The position numbers were made by a program. A stretch of 64,000 nt of DNA from a plasmid, in the sequence record NZ_CP118918.1; one strand, given 5' to 3'. The stretch's first letter is position 1. Each line of letters opens with the position of its first letter. Positions 57,001 through 63,000 of this stretch are shown in pieces.

Positions 57001-60000
57001 CCGCGACCGAGCAGTTGCGCATGCATTGAGTTCAGGTAGACCATCTGGCCGACGTAGCCGATGGATTCCATTGCCATGCGCCACGCCTGGAAGGGCGGCC
57101 AGAACACCACGTCGACCACGTTCTCCACGATCACGGCGCGGTACATGTGGTACTCGGAGAAGCGCACGACATCCCACATGGTGGCGCGGGAGCGCTCGGC
57201 GGCGGCCTCGGGGAGAATCTCGCCGAACAGATCCGGTTGGGCGTCTTGACGTTTGCGGCCCTGGGCGATGCTGTGCTTGGTGCAGCTCGGGCTGGCCCAC
57301 AGCAGATCAGTGGTGGGGAACAGACGCGGGTCAATCTGGGAGAGGTCGGCCTGAATGTGGTCGGTGTCAGGGTGATTGGCGCTGTGGGTTTCGATGGCCC
57401 TGTCCCAGTGGTTACTGGCGACCCTGGCCACGACGTTGTTGATCATCACAGCACCAGCCGTGGAGCCTCCAGCGCCGCAGTAGAGGTCGGTGATCGTCAG
57501 CATGGGGGGGTCCTCTCAACAATGGGTGATGGCTATAGCCTACCACAGAATGGATGGTGATAGCCATCCAATATGTGGGGCTTGTGGTTAGGTCAGCTGG
57601 TCAAATAGGTCGAGCTGAGCGTCGGCACCGAGGTCGAGAACGCGGCGCAGCAGGGCGTCGGCCTGTTCGTGCATCTCTGTGGTGCGGCGGTAATGCTCGC
57701 GGTCTTCCTCGTCCGTGGGGTGGTAGCGAGAGCATGGTCGGCTGTGTGCGTTGGGGGGCGTGCGGGCGTGGGGGCAGCGGCACCACTGCCATGTGCGGTG
57801 CTGCTCGGCTCGGGTCGCGGTCAGCAGGTCAGCTATCTGGCTGCGCAGCGCGGTTGGCAGGGCCTGTCCGAGTCGTTGAATCTGAGTGGCGGTGACCGTG
57901 GCACGCGGGGGGCCGGAGCCGGGGCGGGGGCTGATGAACTTTGATCCGACGGTCCAGTAGCTGGTCATCCAGTCGGGTGCGCCGTGGGGGGCGGTCGGGC
58001 CGCTGGCGCCGCCTGCGCGGGCCAGCAGGGATCGCAGTGCGCGTTCCTCGAGGAATGCGTCCAGGAGGGCACTGCCTGATGATCTGCCGACGAACGCCAG
58101 GAGGTGGCGTTGGTCGGGTGTCAGCGTGGGGCGCATGCGCACAGCCTGACGAGGCAGTGCCGGTGGGCGCTCATGCGGGCATCGCTGTTGCATCGGGTGC
58201 GGATACCGCAGGGTTGCCGGCGGCCTTGATGCGGTCGGGTCGGAAGCCGCTCCAGTGATCATCGCCGGCTACCACGACGGGGGCTTGCAGGTAGCCCAGG
58301 GCCATCACGTAGTCGCGGGCCTCGGCATCGACGCTGATGTCGACTTTCGCGTAGGTGATCCCCGCTTTGTCGAGCGCCTTGAAAGTCGCGGTGCACTGCA
58401 CGCAGTTGGGCTTGGTGTACACGGTGAAGGTGGACATAACGCGCCTGCCTTTCTAAGTGGATGGCTATAGCCTACCATTAAAGCTAGGGCAAGTCAACGG
58501 GAAAACGGCCCTGAACTGGACCATTCGCGACACCTAAGGCCGCGACAGGCTCGACGCGAGCAGGCATGCGATGTCCGTGTCCTTCTTCTATCCAGGCGTA
58601 GTTCTACTGACGCGGGCACGGCTGAGGCCGGACGGATCGTAGGAAACAGCGGGAGGGGGCCCTGAGTGCATGACCGGCCAGTCCGGACATCGCGAACCTC
58701 GTGGGCCGCCGCAGGGGCCACCGCCTGCCGGCAGGTCGCGGTCTCTACATCCATCGTGATCAACAGATGATGGTCCAGGTTCCGACCTAAAACTGCCGGC
58801 CGGCCGGCAGCGTCTGTGAAATCGGTGGGATTCTGCAAGGCCGGTTATTTTTCGAAAGCGTTGGTAGGTGCTCCATCCCTAAGGTGTTTGCGGCCCGCCC
58901 CTGAGAGAGGGGCTAACTACGACGCATCCGTCGCCACAGTGCGGTGCGTATGCCGAGCCTCTCGGTCGTCCCAGCACAGAAAGCTCGAATACCTATATGA
59001 GGGTACAGATTTGATGTTCCCACGTGTTCTCGCCGTCGTGGCCAGCGCACTGCTGACACTATTGCTGGCCGGCTGCACAGGCGACTCTGCAACGCCCAGC
59101 AATGAGCGTGGCGTCCCGGCCGCGCCACGGCCATCGGGCCCTGCTGGACATTCCGTGGACACCGTGACCCTGCAATTTTGCGGCCACAACCTTGATCCCA
59201 GTTGCACGCCGGGCAGCTATGTCGGGCCGTTCGTGTCGCTGACCCCCAACGGCGGGCATTGGGACGCCAACGGTAACCCCGTCAACGGAGGCCCGGTCGG
59301 CGCTGACGGTTCCACCGGCAACAACCTCACCCAGGAGTACTGCGCCCGCAACCAAGACCCCGCCTGCCCGATCGGCACTTTCGTTGCACCCAACGCGATC
59401 AAGAATCCCGACGGAAGCCACACCTACGTCGTCTGTGAGGGCACCATCTGCACCAACCCCAACCACGGCGGCGGTGATCCACCAGGGTATTGGGACGCCA
59501 ACGGTAACCCCCTCAACGGAGGCCCAGCCGGCGCTGACGGTTCCACCGGCAACAACCTCACCCACGACTACTGCGCCCGCAACCAAGACCCCGCCTGCCC
59601 GACCGGCACCTACGTCGCACCCAACGCGATCAAGAACCCCGACGGCACCAACAGCTACGTCGTCTGCGACGGCACCATCTGCACCAACCCCAACCACGGC
59701 GGCGGCGACGACTGTGACGGCACCATCTGCACCAACCCCAACCACGGCGGCGGCGATACACCCGACACTGACACCACTCCCGGCGACGACTCCATCGACA
59801 CCGACGAACCCAGCGATGCCGGCACAAATGACACCGGAGACACCGACCCGCCACCTGATTCCGACGATGGCCCCGCATTCGACGACACCCCGGAAAGCTC
59901 CAACGACGATGGTGTCATCGACGACACACCACCGGATTTCGACGACAGCACCGACACCGGCAGCTTCGACGACGGAAACTAGATGCGTGTGACGTGCTCG

Positions 60001-63000
60001 CGCAACGAGCAGCCTATTCGCTAGGCGCTATGCCCCTGCAGACAGAGTGCGGTAGCTGGTCGGGCTCATACCGACGCGTCGCTTGAACGTGGTGGAGAAG
60101 TGGCTTGGCGTGGAGAATCCCAGTGCAGCGGCGATCTCGGTGATGGTTACCGAACTCGCCGATAGCATCTCCCGTGCTCGCGCGATGCGTTGCTCGATTA
60201 GATACTGGTGCGGGGTTGTACCGAAGGCGGCTGTGAATGCTGGCAGGAACGTACTCGGTGTCATGTCCACGAGGTCGGCCAACCTGTTCAGATCGATACG
60301 ATGGTCCAGTTCGGTGTGCAGGTAGTCGATAACGATCTGCTGATCGTGGATTTCCATGCTGCGTTTGGGTTGGGCGAGACGCCGACGTACATCGGTCGCG
60401 GGGTACAGGTCGGCTATGTGCATCTGCATCGTCTGGGCCAGCGACTGCCGGAACAGCTGTGCTGCTGCACCCTCTTGAAGGGCCTGGCTGGCTAGGCGGT
60501 CCACCAGGCGGTGCAGCAGCGTGTCCGCGTGGCCGACACGAGGGTTGACATCCCTTCCTCCGAAAATAGCTGTGGGGACGGTGATTTCGCAGAATCCAAC
60601 TGTAGACCCACGTGCCAGCGCGGCGTAGCGCCGCTCGGCCGGGATCACCCACACGTCGCCCACACGCGGAAGGCAGGGGCCCGACGGCCCGTCCTCGAAC
60701 TCGATTTCCATCGACGCAAGATCCCCGCGGCGGTGCACGACGAACACGTGGTGAGGTTCCTGGAAGCACCAGTCGGTGGGCGCAGTCACCCGTTCGGCGA
60801 CGAACCGGAAGTCCAGCCCTTGAACTGCAGGGTGCGCGCCGACACCACACTGCGATCAGAGCGCTTGCGGTGCCCATCCCAAACCTGCGTCCGTCCTGAA
60901 CCGCGCATTTCGAAAGTCTCCAGTTTTTCGAAGCAACCTGGCGATTAGGCCACGATAGCGGCCCCCGCCGCAGGTCGATCCGCGGTCTCGGATGATCGCA
61001 GGTCGGCTTCCCGGATTCACCTATCTGGCCAGTGCCTACGGCTAGAGGCTGAGGCCGTGGCTGGGCGGAGCGAGAGACTTGGCCCACCGGCGTTCTTGGT
61101 CAGTGACCTGTTCTGTTGAGCGAGGTTCTACGGTGTCCAGCAGCAGCGCTGTGAGGCGGCCGTACTGCCCGGTGCTGTGCCCGTGGTAGCGGGCGCCGAT
61201 GAACTCTTCCCGACGTGCGAGGAGCTGCACGCCATCGAGGGCGTAGCCGTATTTGCGGCATACGGTGGCCATCAGCATGGTTTGGCTGCGCGTGTTGCCT
61301 TCACGAAAGGGATGGACCTGATCGAGTTGCCCCCAGTGCCGGGCTATCGTCGGGATAAACGATTGTGGGGCAAGGTTTGCGGGGTCACTCAATGCGTGCT
61401 GGAGTTGGGCAAACACAGCAGTGGCCTGCTCCTCTACGAGACGCCCCGCTGGGTAGCGGTAGGTGACCCATGGAGCGGACCGGTCGTCGGGGGCGAAATT
61501 GACGACATCGCGCCACTGCTTTGCCATCGCGTTCTCCGGAACAACTCGCGTTGTTCCGGCCCACGCGTACACGTCCTGGAAGATGCGGTGGTGCACGCGG
61601 CGGTAGTAATCGAGGTCGACGGTCTCGGGAAGCGCGGAGTGGTCATCGAGGATGATGCCGCGCATGCGCGGCGCGACGGCATGCGCTTCGGCAACCGCTA
61701 GGTCGGGGTAGCTCTTGATGCCGAATTTGTTCTTGAGCACGCCTGGCGCATCAGGCCAGAAGTAGCTATCCCACGTGTCGTAGGACGTCACCTGTCCCTG
61801 AATCCCGGCTGTGTGAAGCGCGCGACCACCTCAGCGGCGGCCTGGTCTTCGTTGAGTTCACCACGGTCCATGCGGGCCAGGAGGTCGCGAACAGAGTCGC
61901 TGTCGGGGAACCCGGCGAGGCCGGCGGCGGCGATGGCCAGAGATGATGCTTCCTCTGGGGTGTAGGTCACCGGTCGGCGCTGGAGCTGGCTCATGAGAGG
62001 CATTGTAGTTTCTTTCGTTCGATGGGTTGCGTCAACGGAAAACGTGGGGTGCAGGTTCTGCGAGGCAGTCCACCCTGGAGTAGGCGGGGTATCGAGGCGA
62101 CCCTTAGCCCGGCCTACCTTCCAGAAGTGAGCCCAGCAGCGGCATGGGTCGCCGCCCCCATGCCCGCTGGCGTGAGCGTGTAGGCGATAGGTACGTCGCA
62201 GTGGTCCTCGTTGAGGCTGTAGGCGATCGGGGAGTCAACAGAAGCGCTGGAGTTCATGCGGGGCATCACCTCTCGTGTAGGAGATAGGGCTCACCGCCAT
62301 AAGTGGCGGCTGTCTATAGCCTATCAGCAATGGTAGGCTATAGACACCCTCACGGAGAGTTTGCCTACGAATGAATGTCTGTGCCACAACAGAATTGGAA
62401 CTGTCCGGCCTACACGGTTCGCGTCCACCGTCGGTAGTGGTGTCCTACGGCCTCGGCCTCGATTCAACGTGCCTGCTGCTGCGGTGGCTGCGGGAACCCT
62501 CAACCCGCGACTTCGCCGTGGAGGACATGGTGGTGGTCACGGCGATGGTGGGAGACGAGTTCAGCTCTACTACGGTTGCGGTGGAGTCACTGATGCTGCC
62601 GCTGTTCCGAGAGTTTGGCGTTCGCTACGTCCAGTGCGCCCGCGGTCAGCGGGTTACGACGGCGGCTGGCGAAGGTGTTGTCGTGCTGGATGACTCGACG
62701 TATCCGCAGAAACTGTACGCGGAGGGCGCATACCGGCTGTCCGACGAGATGCTGTCTGCTGGCACGCTGCCACAGCTCGGGGGAGCACGGAAGTGCAGCA
62801 TGCATGCCAAAGGGTGGGCTTTGGACCCGGTGATTGCCAAACTCACGGCAGGGCAACCATATCGGCATGCCATTGGGTTCGAATTGGGTGAGCAGGGCCG
62901 GGCTGAAAAGGACCGCCGGTACAACACCACACAGCGCACCGGTTGGTATCCGTTGATAGAGGCTGGCTTTGACCGACAAGCCTGTCATGACTACGTGTCC

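Follow-up and report, generated by a model that had tools for sequence, protein, structure and literature searches.

Six palindromic sites of 20 bp are present in front of genes in the window, the 64,000-nucleotide stretch of plasmid record NZ_CP118918.1 analysed here, and these sites are read as promoter-operator cassettes of a plasmid regulon whose establishment genes would be controlled by a C-protein-like repressor. A probability of about 0.62 is assigned to this reading, in which binding and repression are predicted from sequence. The window is part of a Mycobacterium/Mycolicibacterium conjugative plasmid with a MobF relaxase gene (47125-53037) and ESX/type IV secretion system (T4SS) genes; it is syntenic with pSMC-8_2, djl-10_1 and pSMC-4_1, and its DNA is high in guanine plus cytosine (GC) overall (0.61-0.71). 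The initial annotation had proposed that palindromes of this family are a shared operator for one dimeric repressor at several promoters, an idea to which support is lent by the promoter-proximal position of the sites, the islands of conservation that they form, their fixed spacing, a distal site that lacks a -10 element, the conserved outer GG/CC and a regulator gene linked to the motif. The sites thus appear to be operators, but not operators only, as the gene-facing half is likely also an extended -10 element.

Palindromic sites in the window

The six sites and the -35-like element at nrdH are as follows (distances in nucleotides, nt).

2775-2794, plus strand: putative promoter-operator TGGTAGGCTGTAGACAACCG, a single site, 32 nt before the ATG at 2827, with TAGGCT at 2778-2783
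57526-57545, minus strand: putative proximal dcm promoter-operator, reads TGGTAGGCTATAGCCATCAC, ends 22 nt before the dcm ATG at 57503
57551-57570, no strand assigned: putative distal dcm operator TGGATGGTGATAGCCATCCA, centre 25 bp from that of the proximal site, over the -35 region
58458-58477, minus strand: putative nrdH promoter-operator, best score (32.6), reads TGGTAGGCTATAGCCATCCA, ends 20 nt before the ATG at 58437
58492-58497, minus strand: -35-like TTGACT by sequence reading, 17 nt upstream of TAGGCT at 58469-58474
62307-62326, minus strand: putative leftward promoter-operator of a divergent pair, reads TGATAGGCTATAGACAGCCG, ends 37 nt before a small open reading frame (ORF) at 62269
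62331-62350, plus strand: rightward partner in the divergent pair, also a putative promoter-operator, TGGTAGGCTATAGACACCCT, with 20 nt between its end and the ATG at 62371

With at most one mismatch, GGCTATAGCC has eight matches in the window compared with 0.86 expected (0 of 100 shuffles reach eight), and TAGGCTATAG has six compared with 0.34, while the 20-mer with at most three mismatches has three compared with 0.00. A symmetrised weight matrix returns exactly six matches of at least 9 in the 64 kb, all of which score at least 21. The motif does not occur at a similar frequency in coding or random positions: none of the six sites is coding, and the best score in 30 first-order Markov random sequences is 13.5. 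The earlier description of the motif at three promoter-proximal places within 5 kb is borne out but was incomplete, because the plasmid-wide search that had been suggested adds the site at 2775-2794 (score 21.0 with the first matrix, which was built without that site) and nothing else in the 64 kb. The sequences and coordinates first given for TGGATGGCTATAGCCTACCA (58458-58477), GTGATGGCTATAGCCTACCAC (57526-57546) and TGGATGGTGATAGCCATCCA (57551-57570) agree with the DNA; the element GTCTATAGCCTAT-n8-TAGGCTATAGAC is likewise present, but its coordinates were off by 8 (62312-62345, not 62304-62337), and its two 20-mers are 62307-62326 and 62331-62350, with centres 24 bp apart.

The replicon extends past the window end on contig Ga0573890_18 (L183), which was retrieved by exact look-up of the 395-aa (amino acid) PAPS-reductase-like protein encoded at 62371-63558 and is identical to the window over 11,630 of 11,630 comparable bases. 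The consensus is TGG(T/A)(A/T)GGCTATAGCC(A/T)(T/A)CCA. Across the nine sites of the replicon, positions 2-3 (GG), 6 (G) and 8-9 (CT) have counterparts across the dyad, which are conserved at 18-19 (CC) and 15 (C) and less strictly so at 12-13 (AG). Positions 15, 18 and 19, the mirror of 6, 3 and 2 on the downstream side of the -10 element, are conserved in 8-9 of the nine.

An identical copy of the site at 2775-2794 is found in pSMC-8_2 at 96455-96474. This site also lies within a longer imperfect inverted repeat (2762-2806, ATAACGTTGG...CAACCGTTAT) that is not present at the other sites.

A likely promoter element within the sites

The gene-facing sequence is TGGTAGGCT or TGATAGGCT at every window site except the distal dcm site, and the five sites concerned read TG(G/A)TAGGCTATAG... 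toward the gene. These five sites end 20-37 nt before the nearest candidate start, at 20-22 nt for dcm, nrdH and the PAPS-reductase-like gene, 32 nt for the gene at 2827 and 37 nt for that at 62269. Extended -10 elements of the form TGnTAnnnT are in use at mycobacterial promoters, and the gene-facing TGGTAGGCT is likely such an element, of the mycobacterial SigA type: TGn and TAnnnT occur together, in the right orientation and at a plausible distance to a gene start, at five of the six sites. The operator half and the promoter half differ by a swap of AT to TA at positions 4-5, which is always found on the side that needs transcription. Additionally, the -35 element of nrdH and its 17-nt spacing are kept in three plasmids (TTGACT in the window and in pSMC-8_2, TTGACG in djl-10_1).

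The orientation of the element was compared with the positions of genes in 12 replicons. The presence of TAnnnT on one strand of a site goes strongly with an ORF start 8-40 nt downstream (31/14 versus 19/54, Fisher p = 7e-6), and where the -10 element faces the gene, the distance from the end of the site to an ORF start is mostly 18-25 nt. The limit of 40 nt was used because an earlier limit of 75 nt was noisy, the distal sites also having a gene within 75 nt. With the -10 element at positions 4-9, transcription by the housekeeping sigma factor would start near position 16 of the 20-mer, approximately 25-45 nt before the start codon; the palindrome would then span approximately -15 to +5, and its distal partner approximately -40 to -20.

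The distal dcm site is the most symmetric site, with 8 of 10 symmetric pairs. It reads TGGATGG... on both strands (TGGATGGCT in place of TGGTAGGCT), contains no TAnnnT on either strand and looks like a pure operator.

Conservation in related plasmids

A synthetic two-site query against PLSDB returned six plasmids with the motif, and the fetched loci were then scanned with the weight matrix. Diverged MOBF plasmids of Mycobacterium and Gordonia were found to carry the motif at corresponding places. All eight matches in pSMC-8_2 (complete, 114 kb; threshold 12) are at equivalent intergenic places, and the two matches in Gordonia bronchialis pGBRO01 (complete, 81 kb) form one divergent pair between the regulator operon described below and dcm. 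In the M. dioxanotrophicus plasmid, sites precede the PAPS-reductase gene, a glutaredoxin operon, a dcm remnant and vbhA-fic, and the M. lentiflavum plasmid has sites ahead of dcm and of a 178-aa gene and immediately ahead of the regulator gene. Equivalent sites are also present in pSMC-4_3 and in eight genome contigs. When six diverged upstream regions of dcm are aligned, the invariant columns fall mainly within the two 20-mers, and the flanks diverge to the point of being unalignable.

The spacing of neighbouring sites is 23-25 bp in 22 of 22 pairs from 12 replicons, with one further pair on L183 at 26 bp. Across loci, distal sites without TAnnnT on both strands still keep the palindrome, and paired sites persist even at places with a gene on one side only, which promoter function alone can hardly explain. 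These data bear on the reading of the motif as only a strong, reused promoter module, made up of the extended -10 element and the initial transcribed region, with an incidental palindrome and no dedicated repressor. Such a module would agree with the gene-facing half TGGTAGGCT being the best conserved part and with every proximal site pointing at a gene; however, it accounts neither for the distal palindromes that are retained at a fixed 23-26 bp without a -10 element, even with no gene that way, nor for the conserved mirror positions CC (18-19) and C (15). We know of no sequence need of RNA polymerase at positions 15-19, around the predicted start point, and the conservation of these positions therefore argues for a symmetric protein ligand. 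A promoter module without a repressor is considered improbable.

Viral and metagenome contigs scanned with TGGTAGGCTATAGNC gave single matches, mostly in low-GC sequence (median 0.44) and without paired sites, which are chance matches. A literature search for the motif strings returned unrelated primers and sequences only, and no description of this motif or regulon was found in the searchable literature on mycobacterial plasmid regulation or on C proteins with orphan methylases.

The candidate regulator

The motif is linked to a gene for a small Xre-type helix-turn-helix (HTH) protein, of which no copy lies inside the 64-kb window. On L183 it is located directly upstream of the 141-aa gene that is cut by the window end, in the order given here (window-equivalent coordinates beyond 64000).

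63707-64000, minus strand: 3' part of the 141-aa gene that closes the regulator operon, the rest of which lies past the window end
64166-64507 (L183 11796-12137), minus strand: 113-aa HTH gene, 166 bp past the right end of the window
64571-64590 (L183): weak site TGGTAGCCTTTCACCCACCA, 63 nt before the HTH ATG
65253-65298 (L183 12883-12928): putative operator pair TGGACGGCTATAACCATCCA-6 nt-TGGTAGGCTATAGCAATCCG, before the operon of the 193-aa, HTH and 141-aa genes

The regulator operon of the replicon, which consists of the 193-aa gene, the HTH gene and the 141-aa gene, therefore sits behind sites of its own. By sequence, the regulator lies behind its own operators in loci L183, L012, L010, L008 and L014-L021; in L183, pSMC-8_2, M. 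lentiflavum (15 nt before the start), pSMC-4_3, pGBRO01 and the eight genome contigs, sites lie ahead of the HTH gene or of the operon to which it belongs, and the operons behind sites in pSMC-8_2, M. dioxanotrophicus and Gordonia encode homologous small HTH proteins. Related loci were searched with a 4-sequence HTH alignment. The protein is found by tblastn in six of the six motif-bearing PLSDB plasmids and in further MOBF plasmids of Mycobacterium, Mycobacteroides and Gordonia, and wherever the surroundings of its gene were fetched, the gene is found beside dcm, nrdH, SNase-type nuclease and DUF6349 genes. Among the candidate regulators tested, the Xre HTH is the only one common to all motif-bearing plasmids, including pGBRO01.

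The initial annotation had pointed instead to a small winged HTH (wHTH) near 43557 (ORF 43488-43895), a suggestion that does not hold up, as this gene is absent from the motif-bearing pGBRO01 and unlinked to any site. The wHTH has weak HTH matches only and is not found in the examined stretches of pSMC-4_3, pKB1, the M. lentiflavum and M. abscessus plasmids, L020 and L021. The C-protein-like Xre HTH beyond the window appears to be the better candidate.

It is rather unlikely that the operators are bound by a different protein, such as this wHTH, the 224-aa HTH protein encoded next to nrdH in pSMC-8_2 or a host factor. Several other HTH proteins are encoded by the window and its relatives, binding by the Xre HTH is itself predicted, and its occurrence with the motif could reflect a shared backbone. 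However, pGBRO01 and most other loci with the motif lack the wHTH, the 224-aa HTH and a 132-aa regulator, and none of the three is located behind a site, whereas the Xre HTH operon always is. A host factor would not explain operator variants that track plasmid lineages and HTH variants.

The HTH homologues are 76-124 aa in length and match Pfam HTH_3 (E = 2e-6). A profile of the family, built from seven homologues, has C.AhdI (1Y7Y, E = 3.3e-11) and C.BclI (2B5A, E = 6.4e-11) as its top matches in the PDB, and SinR, the 434 and P22 repressors and C.Esp1396I score behind these two. The recognition helix starts with DRIF, DRVF or DRSF and aligns with DRSY of C.AhdI, and its arginine is invariant in the seven homologues.

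Changed helices are found in M. abscessus pGD21-1 (NRPYLH, with the operator CTGTATGCTATAGGCAACAG) and in G. westfalica pKB1 (SRTFLR). Divergent recognition helices go with changed operators, which fits the HTH protein as the reader of the sites, although the sample is small. In pGD21-1 (L013 18606-18648), the variant pair CTGTTGCCTATAGCATACAG-3 nt-GTGTATGTTATAGGCAACAG has outer CTG/CAG for TGG/CCA and is located between DUF6349-dcm and the operon of the PAPS-reductase-like gene and the HTH gene with the changed helix NRPYLH; judged from these changes, this pair is a natural specificity variant.

Comparison with C proteins and other regulators

C proteins bind as dimers centred on a sharply bent TATA step, with an arginine at the start of helix 3 reading the conserved outer TG, and the two adjacent operators before the C gene are TATA-centred paired palindromes flanked by TG...CA (PMC2175313, PMC2504287, PMC3351150). 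In the C-box, GACT-N3-AGTC-N4-GACT-N3-AGTC, two such palindromes are approximately 15 bp apart. The plasmid system resembles those of C.AhdI, C.BclI, C.PvuII and C.Esp1396I in its small Xre-type HTH, for which C.AhdI and C.BclI are the best PDB matches, and in particular that of C.AhdI in the D-R-x-aromatic start of the recognition helix (DRIF/DRVF in the plasmids, DRSY in C.AhdI) with its invariant arginine. The signature of this helix in C proteins is HRTY or DR(T/S)Y. The sites share the TATA-centred palindrome, the outer TG...CA and a G approximately 7.5 bp from the dyad with the C-box systems, and as in C systems the operators usually occur in pairs immediately ahead of the operon that encodes the regulator. 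Like C proteins, the plasmid regulator would control a DNA methyltransferase gene, with expression timing after entry into a new cell as the presumed role (PMC2175313, PMC2504287, PMC3351150).

There are also differences. The inner sequence of the plasmid sites is GGC/GTC, that is G(G/T)CTATAG(C/A)C, rather than the GACT-N3-AGTC of a C-box; the proximal operator covers the -10 element and the start site, not the -35 element; at least five promoter regions are involved in this replicon, compared with one or two; and the hosts are actinobacterial conjugative elements with an apparently orphan methylase. The partners of the HTH gene in its operon (193 and 141 aa) are without known domains, and an orphan-looking C5 methylase and a non-specific SNase-type nuclease are encoded nearby.

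Several observations weigh against the reading of the sites as promoter-operators of a C-protein-like repressor. The plasmid sites are 20 bp long and 23-26 bp apart, compared with 11-bp boxes approximately 15 bp apart in the C-box, and this wider spacing makes a dimer-dimer contact of the C.Esp1396I type unlikely. C genes usually lie upstream of the restriction endonuclease gene of their system and are transcribed together with it, but no restriction endonuclease was recognised nearby here, so that membership in a restriction-modification system is not indicated. The occurrence of the motif together with the HTH gene is confounded by the shared plasmid backbone, as dcm and nrdH co-occur too, and G. 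westfalica pKB1 has the HTH gene without a weight-matrix match, with a loose look-alike, CACC(T/C)TATRGGGT, upstream of the operon. The gene-facing half of the sites is conserved better than the other half, and part of the conservation thus belongs to the promoter. Finally, the promoter call draws on background knowledge, the mycobacterial TAnnnT rule and TGn, and a promoter scanner with the E. coli consensus (TTGACA/TATAAT), which is of limited use for high-GC actinobacteria, finds 0 promoter-like sites here, since TAGGCT and TATAAT agree in no more than 3 of their 6 positions.

When bound to the upstream operator, C proteins act as activators, and at the downstream operator they act as repressors (PMC2175313, PMC2504287); the plasmid HTH could be an activator or a dual activator-repressor of this classic kind; alternatively, reading could be methylation-dependent, by the controlled Dcm, whose gene is the most constant neighbour of the system. 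By the inferred geometry, however, the operator centres would fall near -5 (proximal) and near -30 (distal), which is typical of repression and not of class I/II activation, and the methylase domain begins at residue 3, which leaves no room for an N-terminal DNA-binding regulatory domain. These alternatives are held to be quite improbable, and repression by the HTH protein is preferred. Autoregulation of the SsoII type, by an N-terminal domain of the methylase, was ruled out on the same start of the methylase domain at residue 3.

The regulators KorA/KorB of IncP plasmids and ArdK/StbA/KorA of the IncW plasmid R388 are self-repressed and act on palindromic operators over the -10 elements of several promoters, in networks of establishment, anti-restriction and transfer genes that give a burst on entry and are then repressed. 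The regulator proposed here would likewise be plasmid-encoded and self-repressed, with short palindromes that overlap the -10 elements of several promoters; the protein family is unrelated as far as tested (the PDB matches being C proteins, SinR and 434-type), and host phylum and operator sequence differ. Aca autorepressors are small HTH dimers on inverted repeats over the strong promoter of an anti-defence operon that includes their own gene. The combination of a small HTH with inverted repeats over a promoter on a mobile element is the same here, and an Aca7 chain is a weak PDB match (E = 0.03); the plasmid system differs in that several unlinked promoters are involved, no anti-CRISPR gene was identified here and the sequence similarity is marginal. 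In lambdoid phages, OR1 and OR2 are adjacent palindromic operators approximately 24 bp apart, centre to centre, over back-to-back divergent promoters. The Xre/434-type fold (434 repressor and Cro and P22 C2 are among the PDB matches) and the paired operators are shared with the lambdoid repressor and Cro, whereas the plasmid HTH has no C-terminal oligomerisation or cleavage domain, is encoded by a plasmid rather than a phage and has operators over several loci. In concept, a plasmid regulator that represses itself and has palindromic operators at a number of promoters is a familiar device, from which the present system would differ in its C-protein-like HTH, its operator geometry, a much wider target set and an unstudied plasmid group.

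The NrdR box, a 16-bp palindrome of the type acaCwAtATaTwGtgt that occurs in tandem upstream of nrd genes, was rejected as an identity for the motif: compared with this consensus, the flanks here are GGC/GCC and not CAC/GTG, most sites precede non-nrd genes (dcm, PAPS-reductase-like, fic) and the motif tracks the plasmid HTH.

Folding of the sites

In the leading regions of F-like plasmids, single-stranded DNA of Frpo/ssi elements rebuilds a double-stranded promoter. The palindromes could be structures of this kind, that is hairpins or cruciforms that rebuild a promoter in the recipient, or RNA hairpins, and the side of the relaxase gene on which the sites lie is presumed to be the leading one. 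As single-stranded DNA, the divergent pair (62300-62357) forms an uninterrupted 16-bp stem (-15.3 kcal/mol, z = -5.75). However, single sites fold no better than shuffles (-3.3 kcal/mol and z = -0.47 at nrdH, z = -0.97 at the 2775 site), so that folding is no shared property of the sites, and on this ground the hairpin hypothesis was rejected. Additionally, the predicted start lies inside the palindrome, and an RNA would miss one arm, and no Rfam match is found in 55000-64000. A structural role is very improbable, and operators for a dimeric protein remain the favoured interpretation. The 16-bp stem of the divergent pair is a by-product of two inverted sites, and it may be relevant in transfer, when the plasmid is single-stranded.

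The putatively controlled genes and a proposed model of their regulation

The genes behind the sites of the window are listed below.

2827-3462 (211 aa) and 3482-5875 (797 aa), plus strand: two ORFs behind the 2775 site, ahead of the ESX/T4SS transfer genes
55632-58437, minus strand: putative controlled operon of nrdH, a 182-aa protein, the C5 methyltransferase and a 94-aa ORF
58171-58437, minus strand: nrdH, glutaredoxin/NrdH by Pfam
57588-58136, minus strand: 182-aa protein of unknown function, phrog_12222
55962-57503, minus strand: apparently orphan C5 DNA methyltransferase (dcm), by Pfam
55632-55916, minus strand: 94-aa ORF in the nrdH-dcm operon
61042-62269, minus strand: genes behind the leftward site of the divergent pair (small ORF, 71-aa vbhA-like gene, gene for a Fic-domain protein)
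62114-62269, minus strand: small ORF, the first behind the leftward site
61788-62003, minus strand: 71-aa VbhA-like protein, 59% identity over 32 aa to the annotated VbhA-family antitoxin of M. dioxanotrophicus
61042-61791, minus strand: Fic-domain protein behind the leftward site
62371-63558, plus strand: PAPS-reductase-like ('PP-loop') gene, 395 aa, phrog_424 (E = 1.9e-5)

The gene assignments made earlier stand: the C5 methylase and glutaredoxin/NrdH are recovered by Pfam, and the 'PP-loop' gene matches the PAPS-reductase family phrog_424. The PAPS-reductase gene of M. dioxanotrophicus, which is located behind an operator pair of its own, matches Pfam PAPS_reduct. The gene order of the nrdH-dcm operon is the same in loci L001 and L002, and the leftward site 62307-62326, which faces a 50-51-aa ORF and the vbhA-like/fic genes, is conserved in loci L003, L004 and L021. 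No known domains were found in the ORFs 2827-3462 and 3482-5875, homologues of which are present in pSMC-8_2. The genes had been described as cargo and maintenance genes, a label that does not suit them; they look like establishment or anti-restriction genes near the relaxase gene (at most approximately 12 kb from it, on the upstream side), together with the operon 2827-5875. An orphan-looking C5 methylase, NrdH, a PAPS-reductase-like protein and VbhA-like/Fic fit an establishment role.

From these data, we infer promoter activity, binding by this HTH protein, repression rather than activation and timing after transfer. A dimer of the 113-aa Xre HTH would bind the palindrome and block RNA polymerase, and where there is a second site 23-26 bp upstream, the -35 region would be occupied by a second dimer; between divergent genes, a site that is the proximal operator for one promoter would double as the distal operator for its neighbour. 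With the same operators before its own operon, the regulator would repress itself, which would lead to a burst on entry into a repressor-free cell, followed by shut-off. In such a recipient, the promoters would fire and supply the cytosine methylase, NrdH, the PAPS-reductase-like protein, VbhA/Fic and the operon ahead of the transfer genes, until the regulator accumulates and the promoters are shut down with the plasmid established. This logic of burst and shut-off is known for C proteins, Aca repressors and Kor/Ard networks.

A more far-reaching and tentative proposal, which we hold to be possible rather than probable, is that a branch of the C proteins was co-opted by MOBF plasmids of Mycobacterium and Gordonia as a master switch of establishment. 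One divergent pair of a C gene and a methylase gene, as in pGBRO01, would be ancestral, and the site would have spread as a portable 20-bp promoter-operator cassette in which the AT-to-TA swap makes the extended -10 element. This cassette would now serve the orphan methylase, NrdH, the PAPS-reductase-like gene, a Fic toxin module and the operon ahead of the ESX/T4SS transfer genes, with zygotic induction and subsequent shut-off in mycobacterial conjugation as the outcome.

The regulation of the large ESX/type IV conjugative plasmids of mycobacteria, which move between environmental and clinical species, is essentially uncharted. If the regulon is real, a defined operator, a named candidate regulator, a list of controlled genes and predicted transcription starts would be available for them; the orphan methylase would protect incoming DNA, C-type controllers would extend beyond restriction-modification to plasmid-wide control, and the cassettes would be compact, repressible promoter parts for mycobacterial genetics.

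Other features of the plasmid

An exact copy of the 395-aa protein (62371-63558) is present in 240 indexed blocks of public assemblies, including metagenomes and Logan read-set assemblies, which indicates that the plasmid backbone is widespread in sequenced samples. Two NrdH-like glutaredoxin genes are present, at 43888-44157 (plus strand) and 58171-58437 (minus strand), and a promoter-operator site is found only at the second; the first overlaps the end of the wHTH ORF 43488-43895 and precedes a DUF1173 gene and a methylase remnant. Within 45395-45939 (plus strand), this remnant, the N-terminal 70 aa of a Dam-like adenine methylase (45395-45607), is followed by an IstB-like C-terminal fragment (the helper ATPase of IS21; 45664-45939). 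The homologous methylase is intact in pSMC-8_2 (343 aa), and the gene at 45395 seems to be disrupted by an insertion sequence remnant.

In pSMC-8_2, the slot between nrdH and the Fic module is occupied by the 224-aa HTH gene, a cellulase gene and a PE-PPE gene; the genes in this slot differ between that plasmid and the window, which points to a variable cargo slot inside the regulon region. In the window, an ORF at 58816-59982 (plus strand), 388 aa in length or 322 aa in the public gene call, is rich in Pro, Thr, Asp and Gly and has two long internal repeats (YWDANGNP.NGGP...CTNPNHGGG, approximately 230 bp each), without a Pfam match. The variable cargo segment also includes an AraC-family regulator gene at 60014-61087 (minus strand), which is called as 239-253 aa, compared with 343 aa for the AraC genes of related plasmids, and is possibly truncated at its N terminus.

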